Shown piece after piece: positions 23,767-54,700 of a DNA stretch of 64,000 nt (its first letter is position 1; every line of letters starts with the position of its first letter). The notes under the pieces are model-generated. The model saw only the letters and a list, made by a program, of their open reading frames with translations, had not been told where the DNA came from and searched no databases. Origin of the DNA: Candidatus Micrarchaeia archaeon (GTDB lineage: Archaea; Micrarchaeota; Micrarchaeia; Norongarragalinales; CAINOH01). The position numbers were made by a program, and so were the translations under genes. The stretch lies in assembly GCA_041663565.1 (NCBI GenBank), contig JBAYMJ010000001.1, positions 1,259-65,258 on the forward strand, read 5' to 3'.

Positions 23767-23834
23767 GCAGGAAAAAGAAAAATAGAAGGCACAGGAGAAG
23801 TCAAAAAAACCAACAATAAGGGGAAGTAATCTTT

Positions 23835-26648: not shown

Positions 26649-26713
26649 CCGGATTCCCAGCAGTGAAAAGTATATAATAGAAGTTATACAAAGTAATACT
26701 TGAGGTTATACTT

Positions 26714-26980
26714 ATGTATGTCACGAGGAAAGTCGGGCCGAAAGGGCAAGTAGTGATTCCTGAAGAGCTTAGGGCGCAGTTCGACATACATCCCGGCACA
26801 TCAGTATCGTTCAATTCTAATGACGAAGCAATAATCATTGTCAGGCAAAAAAGCGCAGAACAGGTCCTTGATGCGTTTCACGCCATACGCGACGCGCCAA
26901 GCATCCGAAAGGCACCGACCATAAAGGAAATGAAACGCTGGTTCGAAGAGGAGATTGAGGAAAGAAATGGCATACGTTGA
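26714..26980 (+). CDS. vapB: AbrB/SpoVT-domain antitoxin (VapB-type)
   Basis: VGPKGQVVIPEELRAQFDIHPGTSVSF is the SpoVT/AbrB looped-hinge pattern. 88 aa. Overlaps the downstream PIN gene by 14 nt. Confidence 0.75.
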   Translation: MYVTRKVGPKGQVVIPEELRAQFDIHPGTSVSFNSNDEAIIIVRQKSAEQVLDAFHAIRDAPSIRKAPTIKEMKRWFEEEIEERNGIR

Positions 26981-27368
26981 CGCGAACATATTCATTTTCG
27001 CCATCGCCAAAGACGCACCCCAATCTGACGCATGCCTGTCGATTTTGGATGCAATAGTGCGCGGAAAAATTTCCGCCACAACATGCGCGCTCACATGGGA
27101 TGAGGTCATCCATGCCGTGAAACGTAACAAAGGGCAGGCAGAGGCAGTTGCGGCAGGAGAAGCGTTACTTGCAATCCCGCGACTTAAGATAATCCCAGCA
27201 GACCGAAAAACCCTCGCCCTTGCACAGAAAATTTGCACTACATATCGCAACAGTCCGCGCGACTCAATCCACGCCGCCTGCGCAATACTTGCTGGTGAAA
27301 GCGAAATCTACAGTTTTGACTCCGACTTCGACAAAGTAGGGGAACTCAAGCGCAAGGAACCGAAATAG
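26967..27368 (+). CDS. vapC: PIN-domain ribonuclease toxin (VapC)
   Basis: MAYVDANIFIFA (first acidic residue), a conserved Asp/Glu in WDEVIH, RDSIHAACA, and SFDSDFDKV give the PIN acidic quartet pattern. ATG at 26967 is preceded by GAGG. Confidence 0.8.
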   Translation: MAYVDANIFIFAIAKDAPQSDACLSILDAIVRGKISATTCALTWDEVIHAVKRNKGQAEAVAAGEALLAIPRLKIIPADRKTLALAQKICTTYRNSPRDSIHAACAILAGESEIYSFDSDFDKVGELKRKEPK

Positions 27369-27378
27369 CGGTGAAAAA

Positions 27379-35098: not shown

Positions 35099-36703
35099 CT
35101 ACTCCATCCGCCTTATTGTCGTTGCCCCGTTCGGCCCCTTGGTCTTCTTGACTGGGGGGATATGACGGAACCCCTGCTCGTCAACAATCGGCGCGGAATA
35201 CTTGCCCGTTGGCGCAATCACGCGGTCGAAAAACGGGGTTGCGTCCTTGGCCGCGCCGTTTCCTGGGGCAGGCAACGCCTGCTGTTCCGCTGAAAAACCC
35301 TGGCTGCGCGCCATGCCTATGAACTGCCTTGCAAGCTCAAGCCTCCCGGAATCCTCCGGCGTGAACTTCCCGTACGCCTGGCCCCACATTTTTTCAATCC
35401 GTTCCAACTCTCTTTTGGTCCTGGCGTCAATGTCCGGCTTGCCGCCCTTTGCAGCGGCGAACCGCACTATCGCTTCGCCTAGCCTCGCATCCGCCTGGTA
35501 AACCCTCCTGCTGGCCTCCGGAAGCTTGGAACTTTCCGCATAGGGGTTCAGGTTCCCCAAAAGCAGGGGCTGAGAGGCGGCAGCCGCCCCGTCCGCGTCG
35601 CGTTCCTTCCGGATAAGCAGGAGGTCGTTGCCTGCGTCGGCGATGCCGCGCCTGCGCTCGTTGACGCTTTCCGTGAAGCGGCGGCTGCCTTCGGAAGCTG
35701 CGTCCTCCTGCGCGCGCCTGTAACGGAAATACTTCTGCAGCGGGGAAATGCCCTCCGGCCTAGCGCCCATCGACTTCAGGTGCCCCATCAACGAGTAGAT
35801 TGCGTCTGTCTCCGGCTTGCCCTTCAGCACTATTGAAAGCGGGCGGAAACCATCCTGCGCAAGGTCGGCCGGGATGCCGTGGCTTTCGTAGAGGTCGGCA
35901 AGCGCGGCAACACCGGGGTGCGAAAAGACTGGTTTTGGCGCCGGCACTACTGACTTGCCGCCTTTCTGGGGCTCCTTTAATGCAGCATCCTTTCCAACCG
36001 GAACGGGAAGACCGGACCGCGGCCGGGCATTGCGCATCCAGCGCCTTTCCTCCTGCGCAACCTCGCGCTGCCTTGCAATCTTGGAGGCCGCGCGGGAGAG
36101 CATGCGCAACTGCATCGAGTTGGACGCCGCAGACTTGGCAGCGCCCGCGGGCTCCTGTCTCATCACCCGGCCCATCTCGGCCCCGCCTGTCTTTGGCCGG
36201 GGGACGAAATGCCTCTTGAGCACGCGCTTGGGCTTCGAGGCGGACGGGGCACCGGGCGCGCTTGGCCCGTCCTCGAACATCCAGTCGTGAACGGGGTGTG
36301 AAAGCGCGCTTTGCCTTAATCCCCTTTCGTTCTCCCCGCGCCTGTCGCTGCGCTCGCGGATGATGTTGTCAGCCATGCGCCTTAGCTGCCTTTCCTGGGG
36401 GCTTGGCTTGCGGTCGCTCTCGAACAGGTCCTGGAGGCGGTCATACTCCGCAGCGGACAATGCGCGCGGCCCCTTCGGCTTTTCCGGCTCGTACATCCAG
36501 TCGTACGCCGGGACCGCGGTTTTTGATGCTGCCTTTCGGGCATCCTCTTGGGCCCTAGCCTTCTTGCGTTCCTTGAGGAACAGGTCAACCTGCTTCCTTA
36601 TTGCGTCAGACTCCGCCTGGCCGGGGCGCAACAGGGGCGGCTTTTCCTTCCTGCCGGACAACAGGCCGCTTATCTTGGATTTGAGGTTGGAAAATAGGCC
36701 CAA
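35099..36703 (-). CDS. hypothetical basic protein (534 aa), lineage-specific
   Basis: MGLFSNLKSKISGLLSGRKEKPP... Arg/Ala/Pro-rich. Internal repeated motif (VPAYDWMYEPEKP / HPVHDWMFEDGP). 6-nt gap to the upstream gene. The antisense ORFs are compositionally worse. Confidence 0.55.
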   Translation of the reverse strand: MGLFSNLKSKISGLLSGRKEKPPLLRPGQAESDAIRKQVDLFLKERKKARAQEDARKAASKTAVPAYDWMYEPEKPKGPRALSAAEYDRLQDLFESDRKPSPQERQLRRMADNIIRERSDRRGENERGLRQSALSHPVHDWMFEDGPSAPGAPSASKPKRVLKRHFVPRPKTGGAEMGRVMRQEPAGAAKSAASNSMQLRMLSRAASKIARQREVAQEERRWMRNARPRSGLPVPVGKDAALKEPQKGGKSVVPAPKPVFSHPGVAALADLYESHGIPADLAQDGFRPLSIVLKGKPETDAIYSLMGHLKSMGARPEGISPLQKYFRYRRAQEDAASEGSRRFTESVNERRRGIADAGNDLLLIRKERDADGAAAASQPLLLGNLNPYAESSKLPEASRRVYQADARLGEAIVRFAAAKGGKPDIDARTKRELERIEKMWGQAYGKFTPEDSGRLELARQFIGMARSQGFSAEQQALPAPGNGAAKDATPFFDRVIAPTGKYSAPIVDEQGFRHIPPVKKTKGPNGATTIRRME

Positions 36704-36709
36704 TGGAAA

Positions 36710-37339
36710 TCACTCAGGAGCGATTGCTTTATCCGCAAAGCTGTGCGGATTTTTTCGCATGACAGTGTCAACGGCTTCGGATACTAGCTTCTTCTTCCAT
36801 TGCTCATTTGACAGGAACGTGGACATCACGCCGACGGCCTGCTTGGGGCCGTACTTGGGGTACTCTTCCAGCTTTTCCCTCGCCAAATTCGGGGTGTCAA
36901 ACTCCGGGTTCAGGACAAACAGCCTCTTGATGGACCCGTCAACATCCTTTTCGGTGTACCCCTCCTTTAGGAAGAACTCGCTGATTTGCTGGATGCAATT
37001 CCGGTCCGACTTGCGGATTAAATCAAGAACAGAGTGGATGTCTTTCTCGAACTTGGCGGTATCAATCTTCGTCAAACCCGGGTTCCGTTTAAACTCGTCG
37101 GGTTTCTTGTCGTAGTGGGCCAGAATTTGCTTTTTCCTCGCTTCGTGCATTCTTGAAGCCAGCTTGTTTATGACGTTGCGCGAGAGCATCGCGCTCTCGC
37201 AGAGCTTATAGCGCTGGTACTGGCCCGGAGTCATATCCGACGGGCCGATGCTGCGTAGCTTGTTGTACTCGTGCAAAGTGGGCAGCTCGTCCTTGGGCGG
37301 AAGCGGGAAGAAGTTTATCCTGTTGGTTACGGCCGTCAT
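36710..37339 (-). CDS. hypothetical protein (209 aa)
   Basis: Balanced composition (K, N, Y, F, E). Tightly packed in the minus-strand cluster. No family recognised. Confidence 0.55.
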   Translation of the reverse strand: MTAVTNRINFFPLPPKDELPTLHEYNKLRSIGPSDMTPGQYQRYKLCESAMLSRNVINKLASRMHEARKKQILAHYDKKPDEFKRNPGLTKIDTAKFEKDIHSVLDLIRKSDRNCIQQISEFFLKEGYTEKDVDGSIKRLFVLNPEFDTPNLAREKLEEYPKYGPKQAVGVMSTFLSNEQWKKKLVSEAVDTVMRKNPHSFADKAIAPE

Positions 37340-37360
37340 GGGGTGTTCACAAAACGGGCG

Positions 37361-37774
37361 CTAAACCCGGTATACCTGGAGGTGGGACACCCCGCCAATC
37401 CTCTTCGCGCCGGCCTTGGACACGCCAAGGCAGCGGCACGCAAGCTCGACCGACTTCTCGCCGACTATGTTCACGTTGCCGGCTCCGCTCAGGGCGGAAA
37501 TCACGGCCGGTTCGTCCACGACTTCGCCTTCGTAGAACCTGCGGTGCGTCTCAAGGTCAAGAATGAGGCCGTTGGACTCGAACTTCTTCCCAAGGCAATC
37601 CTTGTCGCAGACTGCGACTATTGTTGAAAAGCGCGAGACGTGCGTCTTGAGGTAGAAAGCCGCCTTGGGGGATTTTGCCGAGGCCTTGGAGGGCTTTGAA
37701 GCCGCGACTTTCCTTGCCTTGGCTGACTTTGCCTTGCCTGCGGGCTTTTTCATTGGAACAGCGGCTTTGGCCAA
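37361..37774 (-). CDS. DUF424-like protein with Lys/Ala-rich N-terminal extension
   Basis: The C-terminal ~95 aa (YLKTHVSRFSTIVAVCDKDCLGKKFESNGLILDL...FYEGEVVDEPAVISAL..AGNVNIVGEKSVELA...IGGVSHLQVYRV) resemble the archaeal DUF424 pattern (from memory). The N-terminal 40 aa are a KKPAGKAKSAKARKVAASKPSKASAKSPK histone-H1-like tail. Confidence 0.6.
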   Translation of the reverse strand: MAKAAVPMKKPAGKAKSAKARKVAASKPSKASAKSPKAAFYLKTHVSRFSTIVAVCDKDCLGKKFESNGLILDLETHRRFYEGEVVDEPAVISALSGAGNVNIVGEKSVELACRCLGVSKAGAKRIGGVSHLQVYRV

Positions 37775-37782
37775 AATAAACT

Positions 37783-38268
37783 CTACCTCTTGACGGGTTT
37801 CTTCCCAAGGGCCCGTATCGCCTGCTGCAACCGCGGGTTGTTGGTGTGCACGAGCTTGTAGAAGTCAAACATGTGCCCGAGGACTACTTTGTCCCGCGCG
37901 GTTGCCTTGGTGCCCTTCACCAGCTCGCCAATCACCTCCGAAGCGACCAGGGGTTCCGGCGAGCTTTTGATTGTCTTGGGGGTGTACGCCCCGCTTATGG
38001 CGCCATACCGCTTGTAATCGAACGCGTTCGACTTGTTCTGCTGCGCGCGGACGTTATAGTTGAGCTGGGACGTCTTGACCCGGTGGCGCAAAAAGACGGG
38101 TATGGACTCGTTGAGAAAATGATAGAAACTCTCGCTGCCCTTCGCCTTCTCCGCAAGAACTCCCATTACCTTGTACTGGCTGGCGGGAACCTTGTGCAGG
38201 CCAACCACGCCTTTTACCGTCCTGCTTGCAGACAGTTCTGCCGACGCCACTTGAAATTTTCTTGCCAT
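37783..38268 (-). CDS. hypothetical protein (161 aa)
   Basis: MARKFQVASAELSASRTVKG... 4-nt gap to the upstream gene and 8 nt to the downstream gene. No family recognised. Confidence 0.5.
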   Translation of the reverse strand: MARKFQVASAELSASRTVKGVVGLHKVPASQYKVMGVLAEKAKGSESFYHFLNESIPVFLRHRVKTSQLNYNVRAQQNKSNAFDYKRYGAISGAYTPKTIKSSPEPLVASEVIGELVKGTKATARDKVVLGHMFDFYKLVHTNNPRLQQAIRALGKKPVKR

Positions 38269-38272
38269 GATA

Positions 38273-39784
38273 TCAAACCGCCTTTGCCTTCCTATAGACT
38301 TCCAAAAGCCCCTGCTGCTGGCTGGTCTTCACCCTGCTGCCGGACCTCTTGAGGTAATCAAGCTTTTTTCCTTCCACGCCATTGGACTGAAGGTGCGCAA
38401 CCACGCTCCTTGCAAACGACGGGTAGTTCATGTTCCTGGCAAAGCCCAGGAACGGCTCCTCGTAGTTTGCGAAGCTGTGCTGCGACACGCCGTGGGCCTT
38501 GAGGAAGGCGCGCAATACCAGCTGGTACCCGCTGGGCGAGCCGAGCAACGGCCTGGTTGGCGCCACGTTGAAGGCGGCCTGCCTTGGCGCCGAAGCCAAG
38601 GCGCCCGACCGGTCCTTTCCGACGACCCTCGGGTACACCGTGATGACCTTGCCTGCCAACGCGCCCGGCTGCGGCCTGCGGCCCAAAGCGTAGCCCATCT
38701 GGAGCAAGGCCATCGACGCCAAGAGAGTATTCGCAAGCTTGCCTGCCTTCTTGCCGCCTTTCTTGCCAGTATCCTGCCGCTCGCCTTTCTTCCTGCCCGC
38801 CGCCTTTCCTGCGACATCCTCAACGTCAACATAAGTCGGGACGTCGTGCAGGATCTGGCCGTCGTACTGGCGGTAACCGTCCTGCTGCGAGGGCCATGGG
38901 TGGCCTCCGATTACGTTGCCAGTGCCGTTATTGTTGTTGAAAACCGGGTTGTTGGTAAAGGTGGGGCTGTTGGTGATGGTGACCGGCTGGCCGTGGCCTT
39001 TGAACATCTCGCTGAAGGCCATAAGCTCGTTGATGGTGTAGCTCCTTCCGTTCTCGGGCTGCGGAAGCCCTCCGGGAGATTCGGGCGCCTGCGGCGCGGG
39101 CGCTGCGGGCCTTGCGGCCTCGGCATCCAATTGCTTGGCGCGCTCAACCAAATCGTCCAGCCTGCCACGGTAAAGCATGCTGTTCTTGAGCGAACCATAA
39201 AGGTGCTTTCCCGCATCTATGGGCTTTCCGTGGATTACGAGCGCGGAATTCGTGTAAGCCCGGTTCCTTATGGTCCCCGGCTTGGAGCCTTCGGTGACAA
39301 AAGAAGACATCTCGGGCGAAGTGTAAGCGTCAAGGAGCGCCTCGCGCGCCCTGCTGTCCTTGGAAAGCTCGCCTGCAAGCCACGACGCGCCCTTCTCGCC
39401 AAGCCCCCACGCGCCATGCCGCAGCACGTGCTCGGTAAGCGACTTTATCTGGACCGGAGGCTGGTTGCGTATTATCCTCTGCATCGCGTACTCGTGCAGG
39501 TTCCAGCGCACGCCGTCCCTCTTGGAGTTGAGTGCCGGCACGTCCCACTGCCTGATTGCCTCGGCTGTGAGCTTCGGCCTCGTCCCCAGGCCGCCATCCA
39601 AGCCGGTCCTTGAAGTTATGAACGGCTTCTCCTTTCCATAGGGCTTCCGAAGCAGGTAATTCTTCGCGGACGAAAGCCCGTTTCCAACGTGTGTAAGACC
39701 TGCCCTGACATTTGGAAAAAGCTCCGCCAACATCAATCGCCCTCTATGAATTGCCTTTGGGATATCAATAAACGGAATGGGCAT
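38273..39784 (-). CDS. hypothetical protein (503 aa) with central low-complexity region and a basic/hydrophobic segment
   Basis: MPIPFIDIPKAIHRG... Central NNPVFNNNNGTGN, then KKGERQDTGKKGGKKAGKLANTLLASMALLQMGYALG. The 448-aa + strand ORF 38267..39613 is Arg/Leu/Gly-rich antisense. Confidence 0.55.
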   Translation of the reverse strand: MPIPFIDIPKAIHRGRLMLAELFPNVRAGLTHVGNGLSSAKNYLLRKPYGKEKPFITSRTGLDGGLGTRPKLTAEAIRQWDVPALNSKRDGVRWNLHEYAMQRIIRNQPPVQIKSLTEHVLRHGAWGLGEKGASWLAGELSKDSRAREALLDAYTSPEMSSFVTEGSKPGTIRNRAYTNSALVIHGKPIDAGKHLYGSLKNSMLYRGRLDDLVERAKQLDAEAARPAAPAPQAPESPGGLPQPENGRSYTINELMAFSEMFKGHGQPVTITNSPTFTNNPVFNNNNGTGNVIGGHPWPSQQDGYRQYDGQILHDVPTYVDVEDVAGKAAGRKKGERQDTGKKGGKKAGKLANTLLASMALLQMGYALGRRPQPGALAGKVITVYPRVVGKDRSGALASAPRQAAFNVAPTRPLLGSPSGYQLVLRAFLKAHGVSQHSFANYEEPFLGFARNMNYPSFARSVVAHLQSNGVEGKKLDYLKRSGSRVKTSQQQGLLEVYRKAKAV

Positions 39785-39823: not shown

Positions 39824-40195
39824 CTAATCATCCTTTCGGAACAACCCCTCGAAAGGAATCTTTTCCCCGGACTTGCGCCTCTTTGCGTACTTGATTTCCG
39901 CAAGCCTGCCAAGGCCCTTTTCCGAAGCCACGTCCTCGGCCTTGGACATCGCGTCGCGGCCCGTCGCAGGCTCGTCATCCGGAAGGTTTGAGAACAAAGT
40001 CTTCTGGCCCGCAACCGCGACGACGATAATCAGGACCATTCCGACTACGCCGTAGATTGCCTTCATCGATATGCCGAACACCGAGTTCTTTCCCGAGTCG
40101 CTGTTTGCAAGCATCACTACTGCGGCAATCACAAGAAGAATTAGGAAGACGAACTGGAGGCGACGGGAATTGACCGCCTGCTGCCTTGAAGCCAT
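39824..40195 (-). CDS. small two-TM membrane protein with a charged C-terminal tail
   Basis: TM1 LQFVFLILLVIAAVVMLA; TM2 AIYGVVGMVLIIVVAVAG; tail ...AEIKYAKRRKSGEKIPFEGLFRKDD. Confidence 0.5.
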   Translation of the reverse strand: MASRQQAVNSRRLQFVFLILLVIAAVVMLANSDSGKNSVFGISMKAIYGVVGMVLIIVVAVAGQKTLFSNLPDDEPATGRDAMSKAEDVASEKGLGRLAEIKYAKRRKSGEKIPFEGLFRKDD

Positions 40196-40266: not shown

Positions 40267-40842
40267 TCAGGCAGTCGGGCCACGACGCTTGGGCGGCATC
40301 TTGCCCCGTTCAAACTCCTCAGGAGTCATGAACGGCTTGCCACCGGGGGGACGCCTATACAAACCGTCAAAAATTCCGACGAACTTTTTAGGATTGGAAA
40401 GAATAACAGAAGTTACGTTCCGCTCTGAGCTTTCCTTAAGCGTCGCCAATTTTTTTGCAACTACGTCACGCAGGCCGGAACTATAAAAACCGCCTTTCAA
40501 ACGCTCCTTGTTCTGTGCAACTATTTCCGCAAGCTGATTAGCGCGCTGCTGGGGAAGGTCAAAACCGTGCTTGAGGAGCAGGCGGGTAAAAGCCTTCACC
40601 TGCTCAGAATTACGAGTCTCAACAAAACGATCAAAATGGGTGGACACCGCAGTACCGTCAATCTCCTTATCTACGATAGGTTCAGATCGCAGCGCACTAA
40701 TCTCCTGCAACTCATCAGGAGTATAAGCGGGGCGTTCGACTTCTTCCGCCGCCGCAGCCTCGGCGGCCTTAATCTCTTCTACCCGCTTCTTAGCCCCAGG
40801 CTCACGGGCAAGACGCGCAAGAATATCTAATACGTTTCCCAC
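40267..40842 (-). CDS. 191-aa protein, tandem paralog A (unknown family)
   Basis: GTG start at 40842 preceded by GAGGGAGA. (M)GNVLDILARLAREPGAKKRVEEIKAAEAAA...LLLKHGFDLPQQRANQLAEIV...RRPPGGKPFMTPEEFERGKMPPKRRGPTA. Confidence 0.6.
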   Translation of the reverse strand: MGNVLDILARLAREPGAKKRVEEIKAAEAAAAEEVERPAYTPDELQEISALRSEPIVDKEIDGTAVSTHFDRFVETRNSEQVKAFTRLLLKHGFDLPQQRANQLAEIVAQNKERLKGGFYSSGLRDVVAKKLATLKESSERNVTSVILSNPKKFVGIFDGLYRRPPGGKPFMTPEEFERGKMPPKRRGPTA

Positions 40843-40969
40843 AGAAATCTCCCTCTCAACCGCACACGAAAGACTCCAGAACAGAATTCACGACCAACTG
40901 CTCAATAAAGGAGAAATATGCCCCCAGCTATAAATAAAGAAGGGATAAAGAAAAAGAGAAAAGACAAAA

Positions 40970-41545
40970 CTAAGCAGTCGGGCCACGACGCTTGGGCGGC
41001 ATCTTGCCCCGTTCAAACTCCTCAGGAGTCATGAACGGCTTGCCACCGGGGGGGCGGCGGTAAAGGTTCTCAAAAACATCGACAAATTTCTTTGGGTGTG
41101 ATAAGACCACTGCAGTAACATTTCGCTCCGGGCCCTGCTTCTGCACAGCTAACTGTTCTACAATGGGCCGACGAATGCGTATGTTGTAAAAACCGCCTTT
41201 CAAACGATCCCTATTCTGCGCAACTATCTCGGCAAGCTGACTAGCACGTTCCGATGGAAGATCAAAACCATGCTTAAGTAACAAACGAGCGAAAGCCTTA
41301 AGCTGTTCGGGCGAACGCGTGTCAATGTAACGATTAATATGAGAAGTGATTGTCAGCTCTTCAACTTCCTTCTCCGCAATAGGCTCAGACCACAATTTCT
41401 GAATCTCCTTTTCCTCTTCCGAAGTATACGGCGGACGCACGGCATCTTCTTGGGCAGCAGCCTCGGCGGCCTTAATCTCTTCTACCCGCTTCTTAGCCCC
41501 AGGCTCACGGGCAAGACGCGCAAGAATATCTAATACGTTTCCCAC
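40970..41545 (-). CDS. 191-aa protein, tandem paralog B
   Basis: Start trimmed to the GTG at 41545, which has the same RBS and start context as paralog A. The first ~90 nt and last ~80 nt of the CDS are identical to paralog A by eye; the centre is diverged. Confidence 0.6.
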   Translation of the reverse strand: MGNVLDILARLAREPGAKKRVEEIKAAEAAAQEDAVRPPYTSEEEKEIQKLWSEPIAEKEVEELTITSHINRYIDTRSPEQLKAFARLLLKHGFDLPSERASQLAEIVAQNRDRLKGGFYNIRIRRPIVEQLAVQKQGPERNVTAVVLSHPKKFVDVFENLYRRPPGGKPFMTPEEFERGKMPPKRRGPTA

Positions 41546-41555
41546 AGTAATCTCC

Positions 41556-41672
41556 CTCTTAGCCGCACACAAAGGACTCCAGAACAGAATTAACAACTAC
41601 CTGCTCAGTATTCTCACTCACAGGAACGATGCCCTCGACCATGATGCCATAATCATTACAATTAAGGAAACC
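41556..41672 (-). pseudogene. duplicated 3' fragment of the 218-aa gene (42326..42982)
   Basis: Reverse-strand translation gives ...FLNCNDYGIMVEGIVPVSENTEQVVVNSVLESFVCG*, compared with FINCRDYGIMVEGIVPVKEKTEQIVVNSVLESFVCG* at the end of the intact gene. An in-frame stop (TAA) lies just upstream, so it is a remnant carried along by the tandem duplication. Confidence 0.6.
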
Positions 41673-41736
41673 CATTAGTGAGGAATAAGCTTCCGACTAT
41701 AAAAAGAGAGGATAAAGAAAAAGAGAAAAAATAAAA

Positions 41737-42312
41737 CTAGGCCGTTGGACCACGACGCTTGGGCGGCATCTTCCCGTGCTCCCACTCCTCAGGAGTCAAG
41801 AAAGGCTTACCGCCCGGCGGACGGCGGAAAAAATGCTCGAAAAAAATCGTAGAATACTTGCGCGGGTTCGAAAGCACCACAGCAGTGACATTCCGCTCCG
41901 GACCTTTCTTCTGCGCATTAAGTCTGTCAGCAACTATGTCACGCAAACCCGTGCCATGAAAACCGCCCTTCAAATAATCATTCTGCACAACTATCTCAGC
42001 AAGCTGCTTAGCGCGCTGCTGAGGAAGGTCAAAACCGTGCTTGAGAAGCAAACGAGCAAAAGACTTCAACTGCTCACTATTACGAGTCTCAACAAAACGA
42101 TCAAAATGAGACATCACAGTCTTACCATCAATCTCCTTCTCCTCAATAGGCTCAGACCACAACGCACGAACCTCCTGCTCTTCCTCAGGAGTATACGGCG
42201 GACGCACGGCATCTTCCTCTGCCGCGGCTTCAGCAGCGTTCATCTCTTCTACCCGCTTCCTAGCCCCGGGCTCACGGGCAAGACGCGCAAGTATATTTAA
42301 TACGTTTCCCAC
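41737..42312 (-). CDS. 191-aa protein, tandem paralog C
   Basis: Start trimmed to the GTG at 42312 (the ORF-track start at 42363 would overlap the upstream gene). It is the most diverged copy at the nucleotide level, but the protein is colinear with A and B. Confidence 0.6.
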   Translation of the reverse strand: MGNVLNILARLAREPGARKRVEEMNAAEAAAEEDAVRPPYTPEEEQEVRALWSEPIEEKEIDGKTVMSHFDRFVETRNSEQLKSFARLLLKHGFDLPQQRAKQLAEIVVQNDYLKGGFHGTGLRDIVADRLNAQKKGPERNVTAVVLSNPRKYSTIFFEHFFRRPPGGKPFLTPEEWEHGKMPPKRRGPTA

Positions 42313-42325
42313 AGAAATCTCCCTC

Positions 42326-42982
42326 TCAACCGCACACGAAAGACTCCAGAACAGAATTAACAACTATCTGCTCAGTCTTCTCTTTCACAGGAACGATGCC
42401 CTCGACCATGATGCCATAATCCCTGCAATTGATGAAGGCATAAGTAAGGAACAAATCATCGGCGACAAGCGAGGAGGACTGGGTATAATTGATTACATAA
42501 TAGTTATTTCCGCCGAACTTGGCACTGCCGTTCCAGATGTTGTATGCCTTCATGTCATCCTCATTAGGAATCGATTCGACTAAAGCATAATAATCCTTTT
42601 TGCCAAGACTCGAATTGGTCAAGGTAAGGTCAATGACTATGGGCACGTTGGCACTCCCAAGCGCATACAACTGCAACACGCCCGCGTCAAGGCTGTTCGA
42701 AGAAAGGGCATAACCAGCAGGATAGCTCACCTTGAAGCCAAAAGTCGGGTGCGTGTACTCCAAAAGGCGAATCCCAAGCGACTTGTTTAACATATCCATA
42801 TTCGGGGTGCTTGCGGATTGGGATGCTCCGGGCTGGCCAATACTGGGCAGTTTTACAGCGCCGGAAAGGAACAGATAAGCGATGATGGCAAATATGCACA
42901 GGACCAGAAGGAGTTTTCCGTTCCCCTTCGCTGGCTTGTCGTCCCTTCTTGACCGTTCAATGCGCCTTGATCTTTCCGCCAT
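42326..42982 (-). CDS. N-terminally membrane-anchored extracellular protein (218 aa; possibly PsbP/DcrB-like fold)
   Basis: Basic N-terminus MAERSRRIERSRRDDKPAKG, then TM LLLVLCIFAIIAYLFLSGAV, then a beta-rich domain (FGFKVSYPAGYAL...). 11-nt gap after the giant gene. The fold guess is weak. Confidence 0.55.
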   Translation of the reverse strand: MAERSRRIERSRRDDKPAKGNGKLLLVLCIFAIIAYLFLSGAVKLPSIGQPGASQSASTPNMDMLNKSLGIRLLEYTHPTFGFKVSYPAGYALSSNSLDAGVLQLYALGSANVPIVIDLTLTNSSLGKKDYYALVESIPNEDDMKAYNIWNGSAKFGGNNYYVINYTQSSSLVADDLFLTYAFINCRDYGIMVEGIVPVKEKTEQIVVNSVLESFVCG

Positions 42983-42993
42983 CAGAAATCACA

Positions 42994-45900
42994 TTATCCT
43001 GCAATGAAAGTGAACGCCCCGTTGGGCTTCTGCCCTATAAGCGAGCCGATTATGCCCGGGTCAATCTGCGAAGAGCGCCGGTAAACTGGATACTTGGAAG
43101 TCTCAATCGGCTTCGTGTACGAGTTGAACAACGAGGATATGAACCTAAGGTTGTCCTTCTCGTTGTTGTTATTGGTCACGCCGAGGAACAGGGTGTAGCC
43201 GTTGAGGTTGTCAATCTTTTCAGACCTTGCAAGCGCGACGCAAGTAGGCTTGTAAGTGCCCTTCGTGGCGGATGAATACTGCAACGACGGGCAGAAACTC
43301 GAGTCCAACGTGACGCAAGTGCCATCCTTCGCAACAGGTTCCGATACGGACAAACCATTCTGCGCATAGCAAACCCGCGTCATCGAAGGCTCGTTGAACG
43401 CGCCCGGAAGCACCCAGTCATTGAGCGGCTGTGAATACACGATAAAGTGATTGAGCATCTCGGGGTTCAAGGCCGCCTGCGAAGGCCGGAAGTCGCAGTC
43501 AGTCACGAGCATAATCAGCGCCATGCTTGCAACGCTAGCGACTGACCGCGCAATGGTCCACTTGCTCTGAGCCGCAAGAGTTGACGCTTTGGGAGTAGTG
43601 AGAAGGTCATCGGCGGTGCTCTTGGCAACGATATCCTTGATTACTGCTTCTTCGGGAAGCTTGGCTATGTCAACTTTGCTGATTACTTTGGCATCCTGTA
43701 AAACCTCTTGGCCAGTAACTCCTGTCCCAAGGTTCTCCAATTCGGTAAATGCTTTCTGGTAATCTGCAGTCACACCAGGCACCCCAGAAGGGTCAATGTA
43801 GGTGATAACGTTGTCAATTTGAGCTTGAGTATATTTCATTGTAGTTAGTTCGGTCTGAAGGCTCTTTGCAACTTTCTCCGGCAGACTAGTGTCTTTTGCC
43901 GCAGCGGATTCCAAGTTCAACGCCAATATATCCGCGCGAGCCGGAACAATGTCTATTGTGCTTGCAGCGGTCTTAGTAAGTCCGACAGTATTTGACGACA
44001 AGGTATTCTCAACAACGGATGCACCCAGGAACGTCTTGGACGCATCGTAGATTGCCGTATCAGCATTCGAATCTCCGATTGAAGCAAGCTTGGTTAACAC
44101 GGACTTTAGTGCAGATGTCTGTGCGCTTGATTTCCCAGTAGCAGCCGCCTCTGCCTTGGTAATAGCACTCGAAATGTCGCTGGACAACAAACCCTTAGCA
44201 GATAGGCCATCGCGGATCTTCTGCATCAGGAGAACTTTGTCATCGTAATCGGTAAGGGAATTGAACAACGCAGAATACGCGGTTTTTTTCTGGGCATATG
44301 GGGCTGCGATAAGAGCATCCAAAATGGTCATACCAGCTCCGACGGTCAAAGTATCTGAGAACTTCAGTACGGAAGTGCCGGTGCCAGTCAGACCGTTCAA
44401 GATCTTTTCAGCTACAGTCGCATCGCGAGCATATCCTTTCTGCACAAGTAACCTTGCAGCGACTGACCGTTCATTGAACAGCGCTTGGTATGCCGGCTGT
44501 GCCATCACGCCTATGCCAGCCGCCTTTGTCACTGCGCTGGGGCCGCCGCCACTGCCAAGTGCGTAGTTGGCGCCCGCACCCACGATTGCAGCTCCAATCA
44601 GGAGCTTCTGGTTCTTTATCAGGGTCGTTGCAGTGATGGTATTGCCATGACCTACAAGCTCGGCCCTGAGTCCGGCGACCAGCGCCGCTTGCCCTTGCTT
44701 TCCGGTCATAGCGGCAGTAATATCAATTCCGGGCGGCATCAAAAGCAACGCCTGGGAGCTGAGTGCGTTGGTCATCACGTTAGACATTGAGAGGCAGGCA
44801 ATGTTGTTTGCCTTGTAACGCGGCAAATCGACAAGGAGCTGGGTGGTGGTTGAGGTAATCCCTCCGACCAGCGTTGTTATCGCCTGCGCGGACATCACCC
44901 CGGATGAGGCCAGAAGAACGTCAAGCCCGTAAGTAGCGGTAAGGGTCTCGGCAAGTATCGTCTTGCCCTTGTCGAAGCAGTATGCGTTGTCGTCATAGAG
45001 CGTGGCCCAGCGGATGGTGCGGGAGCTGGTCTCGTCGATGCGGAGCGGCCAGCCGTAGCCTGACTCAAGCAGGAGGTCTGCAGTCTTCATGTCAAGCAGA
45101 CTGGACTCGTTGCGGTAGACGCCGATGCGGAACGTAGCAAAGACGTCGAACTTGAGTGCCTTCTCGAATGCGTGCTTAAGCTCGCCTGCACCTTCAGTCT
45201 GGTTGTCGCCGACTATGAGCTCCTGGTCGTTTCCAAGCAAAAGCAGGGAGTTTGCCAGCGTCTCCTTGCAGGAGTCAATCTTCTCAACAGCTATGTCTAT
45301 CTTGACGTCACTCTTGAACTCCGAGGCGCTTGTGAACGACTGGAGGCCGCAAATCTGGGGCTTGGCTGTGACTTTGTACACCCCGCACCCGTCGAACGCG
45401 GGCATCCCTGCCGTGTTGGTCACGGTCCCGAACTGCTCGCTTGCGATGGAGTTGAGGAAGTCGAAGGTCTGCTTCATGTTCACGACCTGCATGACCATCG
45501 TCTTGGAGTATTCGTTGCCGGTTCCGCGCGACTCGGTGCAGATTGCGTCAAGCCTCTTGGTAAGGCCATCGTCGTCCTTTCCAATGTAGTCTATTACCTG
45601 GCGCATGCCGCCCACGAAGCGCGTGTAGGCGGCAACCGACTGGTCGTAAGTGCAGAAGTGAGTTGTGCAGTCGGCAACCGAGGTCACGCCGTAGTTTGCG
45701 TCAGCTGCTGCGGCCTCAGTAGCGGAAGTGACTGCGGGAGTGGCTGTTGCAGTAGGCGAGGGTGATGCGGTTGGCGAAGGTGTCGCGTCCGCAAAGCTTG
45801 CCGATGCGGGTCCGCCTTGCGCTGCGGAGTCGGCAAAGATTGCAACCGCGTTTTCGGCACCGGCTGCGGATGCGGCCTTCACCGCAGCAACTGTAGCGCG

Positions 45901-48900
45901 CTCAAGTGGAAGCATGTCACCCATCGGCGAGGACGAGTACAGGTTGGTGGCGCTGGTCGAATAGACTATTGCGCGGACTGTTGTGACGTTCACCAGGTCG
46001 CCGGACGTGAAGGTGAACGTGAGCATCGCCTGTTTTCCCTGCACGCTTCCGCTTGCGGAAGTGCATTTCACTTCCGCGACTTCGGAGCGCTTCAGGGTCT
46101 CCGGCACTCCGGCGCAGTCAACCACGGAAGCGTCCGAGGTCTTGAAGGACACGCCCACGTCGTTGGGCCGGTTGTTGACTATGAGCAGGGGCCGCTCGTG
46201 GCCGGAGTTCTTGAACGCGAACACGCGCTTCACCCCGGTCTTCACGTCGGTGATTGCCGAGTCGTAGTTCACGAACACGTCCTTGAGGTAGGCGTCGGAG
46301 ATTCCCATGTCGCGGTTCTCGCACTTGCCTTTCACTATCTTGACCTTGACCGAAATCTCGGGCAGGTTCTTTGAGGAGACGTCCACGCCCGAAAGAGTCT
46401 TCGCGGTGAGCTTGAGCGTTCCGTCGTACTCCTTGCTCTTCACGTCGCTCTTGATGCAGCCGTACGAGTCAAGCAGCGAGTCGGGCACCTTGGCCGTTAT
46501 CGTTAGGGCGCTGCAGGCATTGGCCTTGGACGTGGCTATCACGCCGGAGTGCGAGTATTCGCCGCCGAAGTAGACGTTGTCCTTGGTGATTATGCCGAGC
46601 GGGATGTTGTTGGCTGTCGCGGACACGTTCAGCGACTGGGTAGCGGTGTTGGACACGCAGACAGAGCTGTTGGACACTGAGAGCGCGCCGTCGGTGAGGG
46701 TGAACGTGAGCGTGGACGGCTTGACCGAGAGAGCAGAGCCAGTTGTTGCGGTCACGCCCTGGGTGAGCCTGACCTTGCCCGACTCGGCGTCGGTGCAGGC
46801 GCAGGACGTGAATGTGACCTTGTTGCCGGCGTAGATGTTGACAGCAGTGTAGCCGTTGTCATCAGTGACAACCTCAGTTGCCGCGTCGAATGAAATCGCG
46901 GTCGCCGGCGGGAGGGTGTAGCCGTTTCCGGTGACGATTTGCTGGCACGAGCCGAACTTGACTCCGGTGCCGGTGACGTTCTTCTTTTCGGAGAATTGGA
47001 ACGAGACGTCCGCGCCGAAGGTCGCGCTGTACGAGTCCTTTGCGGACTGCGCGCAGTAGGACACCTGCATCTCTGAATCCGAGGGCACGCTTGCGGCCTG
47101 CGCCAAGCCGTCGCGCGCCACGCTGCTGCCGTCCGGGAGCACTATCTTGTTGGCTGCAGGCAGGACTATCGTGGAGTCGTCCTCGGTCTGAATCTCCAAT
47201 GATGAGCAGTCCGGAAGCGCGGCCTCCTTGGTGCCGGACTCGGTGGTGGTAATCTGCGTCCCTGACGGGAGAGTTATCGTCGAGGACTTCGGGATGTTGA
47301 CGCCGGAAGTGCAGGCCGCTGCCGAGCCCTTGACCTTGAAGTCAACGGCCGCGTTTGCAAGCACCTTGACCGTGAAGCCGGACTGGGTGGTGCCGGTTGC
47401 GTCTTCCGCAAACCTGGCGACTGCAAAGCCTATTGGCGCAAGCCCCGAAAGGGACGTCGTTGACACGCCGACCGTGGAGCCTGCGGGGAACGTGACCACG
47501 TCCTCGCTTTGAAGCGTGAACGAGACCGAGCCGTCCGCGTTGTTCGCACGCTCGTAATAGGAATCTATGTAATAGGTGGTGACGTAGGGCAGGGCGAGGG
47601 TGAACTCCTCCTGCGGCTTGATTATCATAGCCATGCCCGGCGATGCGCTCACTGTCGAGCCGGATGGCGCGGTGACGTAGGGCGCGGTCTTGCTGTCTGA
47701 AAGCGAAGCCCCTCCGAACACGACCCGCGTGGAGTCCTTGTTGGGCTCCTGCACAGCAATCGAGCCGTCCGAGTTCTCCTTTCGCAGGGTCTTTGCGGAA
47801 AGGTCCACCTTCATGCCAAGCGGCATCAGGACGTCAACTGCGTTGTCCGGGGTGCAGTCAACTGACGAATCCAAGTTGAGGGTTACGGGAATCTTGCGCT
47901 CGGAGCGTATGCCGTTTATAGAGGCCACCAAAGTGAGGTTGGTGGTGACCTTGCCGTTGTTCTCCATCACGCACAAGGTCTTGCGGTTGGACGGCATCAC
48001 AGCTGTAATCGTGAGGTTCTGCACGTTGGACTGCTGGCTGGTCTCGTCCTCGCCCGCAAAGACGATTTGACCTGACTCGCCGGGGTTGGGGCCAAGCACC
48101 AGGGATGCCGGAGAGAACGAAAGCCAGTCAGTTGAGGAGTCAAGCTGGTAGTTGACCAGGAGGTTGTTGGTGAGGCTGTTGTACACGTGCAGGTCAGTTG
48201 ACGACTGGTTGTCCGCTCCAAGGGACAGCGTGAGCTCAGCAGAGTCCTCCTCGGTCCCCCAGAACTCCTCGAGCGGCTTCTGGACGAACGCGGAGTTGAC
48301 CTTGAAGGGCATTGTGACGCTCTGGCGCGAGCTGCCTGCGCGCGCCTCTATGATTATGCGGCCCGTGAAGTTCTCCGAAAGCGTGCGGGTTGCCTTTGCG
48401 ACGTCAAGCACGCTGTCAAGTATCCACGTGTCGAACTTGACGTCCTGCGTCGCGCCCGCCTCGAGGGTGAAGCTGGATTCCGAAAGGAGCGTGCCGGTGA
48501 TGCGCGGGCTCTTGTCAAGCACTATTGAGGAGCGGACGTTGACCCCGTTCCCCAAAAGGTTGGAAACGGTGATGGTGTCCGAGTTGCCGGCCTTCGAATC
48601 AACGACCAAGTCGAGTATCTGCGTCGGCGAGACCTCGACTATCTTCTTTGCAGTAACTGGAATCGAGCCGTAAAACTGCGCGTAGCCCGTCGCTGTCACC
48701 GTGAAGTCCGCGCTGCCAATCTTGTCGGGGTTGACTCCCTCGACCAGGTACTTGCCGTCCTTGCCTTCGTTCTCGTCGCCCGAACCGTCGGCCTGGTATG
48801 CGGAGTCGCCGAACACGTCGGCCTTGGAGCCTATGGCGATGTGGGCGCCCTCGATGGGAGTGCCGAAGGCGTCGGTGACAAGGAAAGTTACTGCGTTGTC

Positions 48901-51773: not shown

Positions 51774-54700
51774 TCATCTGTTGCATATGCCGTACTTGCC
51801 GGTGGCGGACTCGTGCGGGTTGGTGCAGTCGTTGGAGGCGCACTGCGAGTCGGTCTTGCAGAATGCGGTGCAGTAATAGTCCCCGGGCAGGCTGCCCGTG
51901 ACTATGCAGGCCTCGGTCGCGGCATTACACGAGTAGCACTGGCCGCTGTAAATCCTGTTCTGGCTGGCGCACACGTAGTTGGTCGTGGGAATGGTCGCGG
52001 AATCAGGGAACGACGCAGTGTACTTGGCCAGGCAGTTCTCGGCGCCGGTGACTGGATAGCACGAAATCTGCACGCTGGCCAGGTCCGCGTCGGTGGTGAT
52101 GCCCGCCTTGCTTCCGACTGCATCGACTGCGCAGCTGCCGGAGAGGAACGGCCTCACCGACACGCCGGGCTTTGCGCCGTTTGCGGTGGATGCGGCTGCA
52201 GGCGTCGGCGAGGCGCTTGAGACAGTGGGAGTTGCGGCAGGCGCGGACACGGCAGTTTGCGCGCAAGTCAGGCCGGCCGAAAGCGTCTTCACGGCGGCAT
52301 AACAGGTGGCGTCAAGCCCGCAGGCGGTGCACGCGCCGCCCGTTGACGGGACGATGCACTTGTTGGCCGGGTTGAGATAGACGTTGTAGAGGAAAAGGCC
52401 GTTGTTGGTGCCGGAAACGTAGTTGGCGTCGCTGCACTTGGCTGCATCGGTTCCTGCAGAATCGCACGGGCTGCTGTGCGGGCAGGCGGAAGTCGAGGAA
52501 GTGGAGACCGCCGCGGAAAGGTAGCAGTCGGGCTTCAATGGAAGGCACGCGCCGTCGTCCGAGCTTGACACGCCGGAGCTGCAGCACAGGCGCGGGTTGC
52601 GCTCGACGATGCCGGAGACCGCGTTCAGGTACTTGTCCGTGACGTCCTTTTCACTGCAGGTCGAATAACCGGCCACTATGGTCTGCTCGGCATCGTTGAT
52701 CAGCCGGTAGGAGCCGGAGTTGCGGTAGATCTGGCTGCCGGTGCACTTGCTGCTGCAGACAGTGCCATCGGTCAGGCCCAAGTCGCAGTCGTAAGCGGTG
52801 TTTGCCTTCTGGCCGGGGTACGCGAACAGGTACAACGGCCGCGAGGACGACGCGGAGCCGGCCATCGGGAGTGCTATCCTGGTGTCCGAATCACCTGCAG
52901 CCAGGGGGTACTCGAACGTCCCGGTGATGTCCTTCGGGACCGCGTAGCCCATCGCCGTCGGGTCATAGTGGAACCACAGCACGCGCAGAGCCCCGCCCTC
53001 GTTCGCGGTCACGTAAAGGTCTGGAAGGACGCGCTTGCCCGTCGAGCCCACTGCCCCGAGCTTCAGAAGGTCCAATGCGTTGAAAGCGGTCTTCTTCTTC
53101 GTGTTGTAGGCCGTGCAGCTGGCATCTAGGTTGCGCAGCTCTGCAAGCGCGGCATTTACCTCCTCGGCCATCTTCTCGTGGGTCAAAGCTATGCCACTGC
53201 TGTCAAATGGGTGCAGGACCGCCTTCAACGGGTCGAGGTTGTCGTTCTCGTTCGCGCACGAGGACGGAGTTGAGCAGGCCTTTACCTGTATCTTGTCGTA
53301 GGAGAACACGCCGGGGTTTGCGTCCCCTGCAGCCGAGGCGATGTAGCCCGGGGTCAGGTTCACCCAAGTGCCCTCGTATAGCCCGAGGGGGCCGGAGTTC
53401 TGCGTCTTGACCCTGAAGAACATCGTGTCCTTTCCGACGAGGAGGTTGCTGAATACATAAATCGACTTGTCCAACGTGCGCGAAGTGTATGCTGTATCGT
53501 AGGCGAACTGCGCGTTGCCGTCCGAGTCGAAGGGCACGAACATATCGTCAGTCTTGTCGTACAACCCCACGCCGAACGCGTACTTTGCGGAAGACGTGTC
53601 GAAATCGGGTACGAGATACAGGTATGCGGAGCCCCAGTTGAAGCCTATCTGGACGTACGAGTCCGTGGAGTGGGTGCTGCTCAGGTAGACCCAGGAGGAC
53701 GACGAGTCGGTCTTCATCATGTCCTTGACGTCGGCTTTGGGCGGATAAGTGACGAGCACGTATATCGAGCCGTCCTTGGGTATGTCCTGCGACGTGACGG
53801 AAGTGCCGTCCATGTTTGTCAGGGTCGCATACAAGGAGGCGAACGTGACGCCTTTTGCGGTGCTTCCGTCGCCAAGGTCGTTCCTTACCTCAAGTATAAG
53901 CCCTGAAACCGGCAGGAGGGGCGACAGGCCGAGATTCTTCTTCGAGCAGGATTGCAAGAGGCCGCACCCATCGTACCTTGCAAGCTCAGTAGTTCCGGTC
54001 GAGTCGTAGAACTTCTTGTCCTTCAGCGAGTAGACCACGGAGCTGGAAGCGCCGGGAGTGACGGTCACCGTCGGGGTCGCGGATGGCGAGACGGTCGCAG
54101 TAGGCACCGGCGAGCCTGTGGGAGCAGGCGAGGCCGTCGCCGTTGCAGTCGGGGTCGCCGACGGAATCGCGGCGCATCCGGTCCCCGCGCTGTTGCATAT
54201 GATGCATCCGTAGCAGCCTACGGGCGGGTTGGAAGCCTGGGAAGTGCTTACGCACGTGCCGAACTGCATGTTGCTTATCTGCACGCAGACGGGCGTATCC
54301 GAGGGGCATCCGTTGAGCGTGCGGTCATCCTTGTGGGCATAGTTGCACGTGCAGAGGTCCTTTGACGAGTCGTCCGGCTTCTCGCGGCACGTAAGCGGGT
54401 TGTTGCAGTTCTGCGCGTAGTAGTCGCACGTCGAGCCGAGCCCATTCGAGGTGGTCTTCGTGCACACGTTGCTTATGCAGTCCGTGCCTGATTCGCAGCA
54501 CTCGGACAGGGAATCCTTGCACGAGTCGCCTTCCTTGACCGTGGACTCGCACGAGTCGGGGCAGACTATGCCGAGCGGGCCGCAAAGTTCGGTGCTTGCC
54601 TTTTGGCACATGTCGGTGGAGTTGCAGTTCCCGCTCTCGCACTCGTCGTCGTCCTCGCAGGACTCGCCGTTTGCCTTCGTGGTGGCGTTCTTGACCGTGA

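Follow-up and report, generated by a model that had tools for sequence, protein, structure and literature searches.

How can neighbouring copies of one gene be identical at both ends and strongly different in the centre? The question is raised by a stretch of 64,000 nucleotides (the window) from Candidatus Micrarchaeia archaeon (NCBI GenBank assembly GCA_041663565.1, contig JBAYMJ010000001.1, positions 1,259 to 65,258), which carries on its minus strand a head-to-tail tandem of three 576-nt open reading frames (ORFs), each of 191 codons plus a stop. The original prediction, made from the letters of the window, described three equal-length genes starting with GTG behind the same ribosome-binding site (RBS), and this was confirmed: copies A (40267-40842), B (40970-41545) and C (41737-42312), all on the minus strand, start at 40842, 41545 and 42312, and GAGGGAGA stands ahead of each of them, the GTG beginning 5 nt after it. 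Copy C lies directly downstream of an intact 218-aa gene, the 3' end of which recurs as relics ahead of B and A. Copy A is a 100 % match to the NCBI protein WCX64_00215. In the NCBI annotation copy C (WCX64_00225, P0003) begins at an internal ATG and has 168 aa; alignment with A, B and their relatives supports the GTG at 42312 as its true start, which would give 191 aa. We conclude, with a probability of roughly 0.85, that the three copies are ancient paralogs, the ends of which have been homogenised by segmental gene conversion, and that they belong to an uncharacterised orphan family restricted to the Micrarchaeia.

Identity mosaic among the three copies

The copies are 74-77 % identical overall at the nucleotide level, and the divergence is not uniform along the genes. 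As had been noticed by eye, A and B are alike at their ends and different in the middle: they differ at 1 of 90 nt at the 5' end, at 147 of 399 nt in the centre and at 2 of 84 nt at the 3' end (Fisher p = 1e-23). The ends contain two tracts of 100 % identity, read here as conversion tracts, both on the minus strand. The 5' tract of 91 nt (A 40754-40844, B 41457-41547) extends from -2 to +88 relative to the start and so runs into the 5' non-coding flank, while the 3' tract of 80 nt (A 40271-40350, B 40974-41053) encodes the conserved tail PPGGKPFMTPEEFERGKMPPKRRGPTA. A and C share a further identical tract of 61 nt (A 40828-40888, C 42298-42358, minus strand; -46 to +14); besides the relic block and the RBS, this tract takes in the first 15 nt of the coding sequence.

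Copy C had been described as diverged throughout, which was not the case. It is itself a mosaic, being 91-93 % identical to A and B over the first ~75 nt, nearest to B at nt 76-165 and nearest to A at nt 180-300 (84-93 %). In a GENECONV-type permutation of the 203 polymorphic sites, the runs of shared sites were non-random in all pairs (p ≤ 0.003; AB p < 5e-5, AC p = 0.002, BC p = 0.003), the longest runs comprising 15, 10 and 8 sites for AB, AC and BC, respectively, and shared sites are clustered in the manner of segmental gene conversion. The cores differ by 25-35 % between copies.

Synonymous and non-synonymous divergence (pS and pN) was calculated pairwise according to Nei-Gojobori, and dN/dS was followed in windows. 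Between A and B, pS is 0.045 at the 5' end, 0.75 in the core, where it is saturated, and 0.00 at the 3' end. When these ends are compared with copy C, pS amounts to 0.27-0.56 and pN to 0.06-0.08. Since synonymous differences have accumulated at these ends relative to C, the identity of A and B there does not come from protein constraint alone; it reaches both synonymous and non-coding sites. The pattern of pS and pN thus argues that the ends are under purifying selection in all copies and have in addition been copied recently between A and B.

Relatives, copy number and segment trees

The family is small. A profile search of 5.8e9 proteins gave 15 clusters at 90 % identity, and an exhaustive search of 1.84e9 representatives with a hidden Markov model (HMM) returned only the family, in 6 real clusters at 50 % identity, together with one low-complexity false match (P0020). 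No relatives were found in a scan of GTDB species representatives, and no description of the family or the locus was found in the literature. The relatives belong to three related genome types, here called G2, G3 and G4; the prefix W_ marks a copy of the window. The neighbourhood comparison that had been recommended as a check recovered the same locus in all of them, with four copies in G2 (contigs L001-L006 and L014-L016), five in G3 (L007, L008, L011, L012 and L017) and one in G4 (L009, L010 and L013, the last on a 1.2-Mb contig). The flanks of the array are constant: a giant gene and a 218-type gene on one side, and genes for proteins of 123 aa, ~480 aa, ~160 aa, DUF424, ~200 aa and ~530 aa on the other.

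Different parts of the genes have different nearest relatives. The cores (aa 40-160) are closest to copies in other genomes, W_A to G3_2 (77 %), W_B to G2_3 (77 %) and W_C to G4_1 (83 %). Accordingly, the A-type core is orthologous to G3_2 (P0011), the B-type core to G2_3 (P0005) and G3_3 (P0013), and the C-type core to G4_1 (P0004). The N-termini, in contrast, are nearest within their own genome, at 99 % and 88-89 %, compared to at most 48 % with other genomes. Neighbour-joining trees follow the same division. Cores form clades by paralog type across genomes (bootstrap 0.94-1.00), whereas the first 30 codons form clades by genome, namely {W_A,W_B,W_C} with a bootstrap of 1.00, {G3_3,G3_5} with 1.00 and {G2_2,G2_3} with 0.81; the tails of W_A and W_B also form a clade (1.00). 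Paralogous similarity in one part of the gene is therefore combined with orthology elsewhere, both in the identity matrices and in the bootstrapped trees. The GTG start and GAGGGAGA are common to all three window copies and the relatives start with ATG (MPLW...); judged from these starts, the GTG is a shared derived trait of the window trio.

The history that we propose from these comparisons is as follows. A tiny orphan family is kept as a tandem array of one, three, four or five copies at a single conserved chromosomal position. On one side of it is the gene of a 218-aa protein with a membrane anchor, which itself lies downstream of the giant surface proteins, and on the other side that of a 123-aa protein with two transmembrane segments. 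The core types A, B, C and D are probably older than the split of the sampled lineages, and each of them is held by purifying selection, with a core dN/dS of 0.26-0.28 for paralogs and of 0.05-0.23 for orthologues. Repeated short-tract conversion between neighbouring copies would homogenise three regions in each genome: the 5' flank with the RBS and, inside the gene, the first ~30 and the last ~27 codons. Conversion of such short tracts at the ends would explain why identical ends are combined with a divergent centre, and smaller exchanges would also have occurred inside the core (B with C at nt 76-165, A with C at nt 180-300). Conversion may persist at the ends because the shared tail and leader, being under purifying selection, retain the similarity that recombination needs, while in the core either divergence would block conversion or selection would reject converted copies. 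In the duplicated unit, a T-rich spacer and a TATA-like box are followed by the 3' end of the 218-type gene, the RBS and the 191-codon gene.

Some further observations concern the extent of the family. The third copy of L012 and L018 (L012 5780-6286; L018 1429-1935) differs from that of L007, and L019 has relics of 37-38 codons with the same 5' junction as the relic before B in the window; such variants indicate an apparently ongoing gain, loss or replacement of units. A 199-aa gene of G3 (L007 8927-9526), located after the last copy and before the 123-aa gene, gave a borderline, collinear hhalign match to the family over 81 columns (E = 0.021), which includes the region of the RPxYxxEE motif; it has no conserved tail and may be a very divergent sixth paralog. 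Comparison of the family profile with the neighbouring 209-aa and 161-aa proteins by hhalign was negative.

Gene calling at the locus is erratic. Long antisense ORFs (174, 213 and 203 aa) occur in the exact-complement frame of family genes (window 41776-42300, plus strand; L002 5081-5722 and 6960-7571, minus strand), and gene callers sometimes annotate the antisense ORF in place of the sense copy (L005, L007 and L022). The family copies at L007 6578-7153 and 7291-7866 have no gene call at all. The antisense ORFs are very likely artefacts and not real genes, TTA, CTA and TCA codons being rare in the sense frame. Because of these antisense and missed calls, protein databases list too few members of the family.

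Relics of the 218-type gene and a possible leader ORF

A fossil of the 218-aa gene had been reported between C and B. The similarity to the 3' end of that gene extends over 126 nt at 86.5 % identity (41563-41688), and a second relic, which had been missed, lies upstream of A (40856-40904, minus strand; 49 nt, 92 %) and comprises the last 15 codons and the stop of the 218-aa gene. The relic before B contains an intact ORF of 38 codons, MGFLNCNDYGIMVEGIVPVSENTEQVVVNSVLESFVCG* (41559-41675, minus strand). Both relics have their stop 13 nt before the GTG of the following copy; the relic before A has no in-frame ATG. In the C-B spacer a distance of 22 nt separates the end of an upstream TATA-box-like motif, TTTTTATAG (41697-41705, minus strand), from the ATG with which the 38-codon ORF starts, and the B-A spacer has a similar motif, TTTATTTATAG (40928-40938, minus strand), preceded by the same T-rich tract; both are putative promoters. 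The motif TTTWTATAG has two matches in the window, one of them inside the coding sequence of copy A, which is too few for calibration of a promoter, and the region upstream of the tRNA gene offered no clear TATA reference.

The same arrangement is found throughout the family. The last 12 codons of the 218-type gene (36 nt), encoding VVNSVLESF(E/V)CG, precede with a stop all 13 copies in the four genome types, the D-type included, and nine of the 13 blocks lie at non-coding positions. The stop is always kept, although its identity varies (TGA, TAA or TAG), and the gap from stop to start is 11-16 nt in 12 of 13 copies and 13 nt for A, B and C, similar to a termination-reinitiation pair, in which the upstream ORF stops ~0-15 nt from the downstream start. 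In 11 of the 12 unique spacers an ATG or GTG is located 5-22 nt past a TATA-like box and is in frame through the block, which results in ORFs of 19-38 codons; in the spacers of G3 different ATGs fill the start role after a 1-nt indel.

The claim that the duplication unit spanned the gene boundary gained support in two ways, from the last ~40 nt of a 218-type gene before every copy and from a 165-aa partial copy at a like position in G2. The latter (L002 6518-7015, inside the array) is an N-truncated duplicate of the 222-aa 218-type gene, without the membrane anchor. Compared to its parent it has a pN/pS of 0.08 at a pS of 0.25 (P = 3e-11), and owing to this strong purifying selection it is considered a real gene; it probably represents the ancestral state of the window relics. 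Relics compared with each other have a pN/pS of 0.15-0.21 at pS 0.60-0.69 (P ~1e-5), and the range for relic fragments overall is 0.04-0.21. For the relic before B and the intact gene of the window the value is 0.51, not significantly below 1. Fossil is probably too weak a word; most relics are intact small ORFs conserved at the protein level.

The relics of G3 (L007 5619-5861, 6444-6577, 7154-7290 and 7867-8000) resemble the 218-type genes of G2, G4 and the window (84-97 % identity) more than the 221-aa gene of their own genome (70-81 %). This suggests that the resident gene was replaced or diverges fast, or that array segments may have been exchanged between lineages. In the window, an E to V change (ESFVCG) is specific to this genome and common to the intact gene and both relics, and conversion into relics therefore does occur.

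It is possible, and we put it forward tentatively, that the relics act as translated leader mini-ORFs. Each downstream copy would be transcribed from its own TATA-like promoter as a leaderless or near-leaderless mRNA, the 19-38-codon ORF would end in ...VVNSVLESF(E/V)CG*, and the ribosome terminating 11-16 nt upstream would promote initiation on the family gene by termination-reinitiation, mimicking the arrangement of the first copy with the intact 218-aa gene. Such a role would complement gene conversion between ancient paralogs and not compete with it. In archaea the distance from the TATA box to the transcription start site is canonically ~22 nt, which is the distance of the 38-codon ORF ATG of the window from TTTTTATA. 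The near-universal block and stop, the in-frame starts behind TATA-like boxes and the low pN/pS of the relics and of the 165-aa copy of G2 are in line with translation, and as the relics of G3 are nearer to the genes of other lineages, conversion by the resident gene does not explain their conservation. Reinitiation in Haloferax volcanii keeps an efficiency of 40-60 % at 13/14 nt and loses it at 22-23 nt, and short 3' regions of the upstream gene suffice for coupling (PMC10666635); by analogy, the 13-nt gaps of the window would fall within the working range.

Other results speak against a leader ORF. The relic before A has no in-frame ATG, the relic before B is not significantly constrained relative to the intact gene, and a protein-like pattern could be imported by occasional conversion from coding copies, as the shared ESFVCG illustrates. 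RNAalifold gave only a trivial 5-bp hairpin without covariation for the 13 leaders, and the last 12 codons of the intact 218-type genes have no excess of synonymous conservation over the rest of the gene. The last two results also leave an element acting at the RNA level in the relic block unsupported.

The protein and its conserved tail

The family protein is hydrophilic, without a transmembrane segment, and has a pI of 8.8-9.4. The AlphaFold2 model, based on a family alignment of 14 sequences, is all-alpha with 11 helices (pLDDT 78.9, pTM 0.72); confidence is high for residues 41-160 and low for the first ~40 residues and for the extreme C-terminus, and the tail is only partly ordered. No class III signal peptide or hydrophobic N-terminus was detected: the maximal hydropathy over 19 residues is 0.31-0.81, and the N-terminus is charged and amphipathic. 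In Pfam, NCBIfam and PHROGs the three copies and six or seven of their neighbours gave no family match, except for DUF424 and a weak, sub-threshold DctQ match among the neighbours. A profile search of the PDB gave a best E value of 0.23, which is not significant, and Foldseek of the model found no similar fold (best E = 2.1 in the PDB and 1.9 in BFVD). The protein can thus be described, on the predicted structure, as a soluble, basic, all-alpha orphan.

The C-terminal tail, already pointed out as strikingly conserved from the window copies, was found to be kept in all family members, the D-type included, as (R/K)RPPGGKPF(L/M)(T/S)xEE(W/F)xxGxxPPxRR(S)GP(T/S).., with a dN/dS of 0.08. The docking peptide originally suggested for it agrees with this conservation. 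Most likely this Pro/Arg-rich tail would contact a partner common to all paralogs and the type-specific core would give specificity. A common docking motif joined to a type-specific core would be the most economical functional model.

Weighing the alternatives

A recent triplication followed by positive (diversifying) selection on the core, with ends too young to have diverged, would account for A and B having identical ends and strongly different centres, and the highest pN values are indeed found in the core, in windows around codons 42-62 and 112-132. However, one duplication date cannot yield both a pS of 0.75 in the core and 0-0.045 at the ends of A and B. pN exceeded pS in none of the 30-codon windows, the core dN/dS is that of purifying selection (0.26-0.28), and for every core type a closer orthologue exists in some other genome (bootstrap 0.94-1.00), which makes such a history very unlikely. 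Of the two processes considered in the original prediction, gene conversion at the ends is thus supported, by pS values of 0.045 and 0.00 and by conflicting segment trees, and diversifying selection on the core is not, as dN/dS is low and the core types are ancient.

It is equally hard to explain the ends without recombination, by nothing but strong purifying selection on the helix at the N-terminus and the tail at the C-terminus. The tail is kept in every family member and its dN/dS is only 0.04-0.09 in several comparisons, as this explanation would have it, but synonymous differences are not removed by protein constraint, and pS in the tail is 0.56 for C against A or B and 0.00 for A against B. 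Between genomes, few parts of the gene are less conserved than the N-terminal 30 codons (pN ~0.5), but within a genome these codons are 88-99 % identical, and the identity reaches the non-coding flank. We consider selection as the only cause highly improbable.

Conserved ends with variable centres could also result from programmed diversification, i.e. a diversity-generating retroelement, switching between an expression site and silent cassettes (as in pilE/pilS or vlsE), or orphan toxin/immunity modules of the contact-dependent inhibition (CDI) or Rhs type. The repetition of upstream-gene 3' fragments together with the downstream gene resembles orphan toxin/immunity modules, and the array adjoins giant surface proteins. 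Against a retroelement, all 12 classes of substitution occur in similar numbers without adenine bias, and no reverse transcriptase was present among the ORFs scanned, the small ORFs of the window not having been scanned exhaustively. Every copy has its own start, RBS and promoter-like spacer, and none resembles a silent cassette. Rather than a variable toxin domain, the repeated fragment is a conserved C-terminal end (pN/pS 0.04-0.21); Pfam, NCBIfam and PHROGs gave no match to a family of toxins, immunity proteins or defence proteins (PADLOC was not searched), and the core types are stable across genomes under purifying selection. An orphan array of polymorphic toxin or immunity genes does not fit these properties, and programmed diversification in any of these forms has very little probability. 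Least likely of all is an error of assembly, by which repeats were collapsed or expanded or strains were joined into a chimera, for although the source is a metagenome-assembled genome in which exact repeats of 80-91 nt could mislead an assembler, the cores are divergent enough (25-35 %) for the copies to be resolved separately, homologous arrays were recovered repeatedly in independent samples, and a stretch of 8,657 bp that spans the array has exactly the same sequence in an independently assembled contig (ENA k141_1386509, 253.8 kb).

The preferred explanation therefore remains that the copies are ancient paralogs and that conversion has homogenised their ends; the following points weigh against it. 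Single assemblies do not tell the direction and rate of the exchanges, or whether these took place by conversion or by unequal crossing-over with reciprocal products. Some of the similarity between genomes could come from array segments that were exchanged laterally, as for the relics of G3; such exchange would blur the picture of ancient paralogs and not remove it. The dN/dS values of pairwise windows leave room for site-specific positive selection at a few core residues. Finally, the model of a docking tail and a specificity core stands without a match in Pfam, NCBIfam, PHROGs, the PDB or Foldseek.

Genomic neighbourhood

The 218-aa gene (42326-42982, minus strand), the 3' end of which is the source of the relics, encodes a protein with one N-terminal transmembrane segment and without a family match; its AlphaFold model, from an alignment of four sequences, has a pLDDT of 40.6. 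On the downstream side the array is bounded by the gene of the 123-aa protein with two transmembrane segments (39824-40195, minus strand), kept in all the genomes. The conserved upstream neighbour is giant 1, a surface protein of 2886 aa (42994-51654, minus strand) with CarboxypepD_reg repeats and N- and C-terminal transmembrane segments. Its paralogs, giants 2 (51774-59006, 2410 aa) and 3 (59094-63998, >1634 aa), follow upstream. CarboxypepD_reg repeats and an N-terminal transmembrane anchor are present in both giant 1 and giant 2; giant 3, which is partial, with its N-terminus cut by the window edge, had no Pfam match. The giants (42994-63998) are mutually paralogous, with 33 % identity over ~800 aa between giants 2 and 3 and 25 % over ~830 aa between giants 1 and 2. 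In the window, the number of visible giants, three, equals the number of family copies.

The downstream neighbours of 503, 161, 209 and 534 aa (35099-39784) are all very basic (pI 9.3-10.3) and without a family match, and the sole recognisable protein in this region is a DUF424 protein of 137 aa (37361-37774). From 35.1 kb to the window end, a block of ~30 kb can be regarded as Micrarchaeia-specific 'dark matter'. The remaining window is an ordinary archaeal chromosome with proteasome alpha, SBDS, exosome subunits, UvrABC, FBPase and one tRNA-Asp. It includes two items without relation to the array, a protein resembling the large subunit of [FeFe]-hydrogenase (Fe_hyd_lg_C and SSU domains; 16543-17634) and a complete bacterial-type UvrA/UvrB/UvrC set (21721-28959).

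The G+C content at third codon positions (GC3) is 0.39-0.58 in the 218-type gene and all family copies, compared to 0.59-0.84 in the flanking genes. The dip occurs in all four genome types (window 40267-42982; L002 4506-8326; L007 4335-9526; L009 3415-4678) and for this reason represents a conserved compositional feature; recent horizontal transfer of the array was rejected on the same ground. Candidate causes are selection on codon usage, the level of expression or a local mutation bias.

Comparison with known systems

Partial concerted evolution has been described for the mtrA-1/mtrA-2 pair of methanogens (PMC4632066), and rare long-lasting cases have been catalogued (PMC6053082). The array shares with the mtrA type ancient duplicates, a part of the gene homogenised within each genome and conflicting trees of the segments. 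It differs from known cases in that the family is an uncharacterised orphan of one to five copies and not a core metabolic or translation gene, and in that both ends and the 5' flank are homogenised and not a whole domain, with at least four stable core types coexisting.

Tandem flagellin and archaellin genes also have conserved N- and C-terminal segments, a variable central domain and recombination, and their termini are poorly ordered in the monomer. The array copies resemble them as tandem paralogs with conserved termini, a variable centre, exchange between copies and poorly ordered ends. A class III signal peptide, a hydrophobic N-terminus (hydropathy 0.3-0.8) and any similarity in sequence or fold are, however, absent, and as there is no hydrophobic segment the proteins are not like archaellins or type IV pilins.

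In polymorphic toxin loci (CDI cdiA-CT/cdiI, Rhs), orphan modules consist of a 3' fragment of the upstream gene and the next gene. The array likewise starts as a gene downstream of giant surface proteins, followed by repeats of an upstream-gene 3' fragment and the next gene. In the array, however, what is repeated is a conserved part, the C-terminus of a 218-aa membrane protein, without toxin or immunity domains, and the variable partner is the downstream gene, the types of which are conserved across genomes.

Archaeal gene pairs coupled by termination-reinitiation typically overlap by 4 or 1 nt (PMC6728339, PMC10666635). In the window the upstream ORF similarly ends close to the next start, with a Shine-Dalgarno-like motif between them. 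The differences are the 13-nt gap in place of an overlap of 4 or 1 nt, 40-60 % of the efficiency being lost already when the gap is 13-14 nt, and an upstream 'gene' that is a remnant of 19-38 codons.

Implications

The novel or unexplained features of the locus are the conserved mini-ORF or relic before every copy and the GC3 dip over the 218-type gene and the array. One might go further and imagine a modular adaptor system of a Micrarchaeia clade, in which the cores bind different partners and the tail binds one common machine, the units are driven by reinitiation after leaderless mini-ORFs, and conversion and copy number retune the host-interaction repertoire between strains. Candidate partners of the cores would be the cytoplasmic tails at the N-termini of the adjacent giant surface proteins, which are presumed to serve in host attachment. 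We regard this scheme as improbable in its entirety.

The array is a well-resolved natural case of partial concerted evolution in a DPANN archaeon, although the phenomenon itself is already known, and it indicates that homologous recombination or gene conversion acts on tracts of ~60-90 nt in reduced DPANN genomes. What is new is an unannotated, lineage-restricted gene family at a conserved locus near giant surface proteins, which are prime candidates for contact between symbiont and host. The conserved mini-ORF before nearly every copy could provide a tractable case of a gene remnant that is kept for a role in translation.

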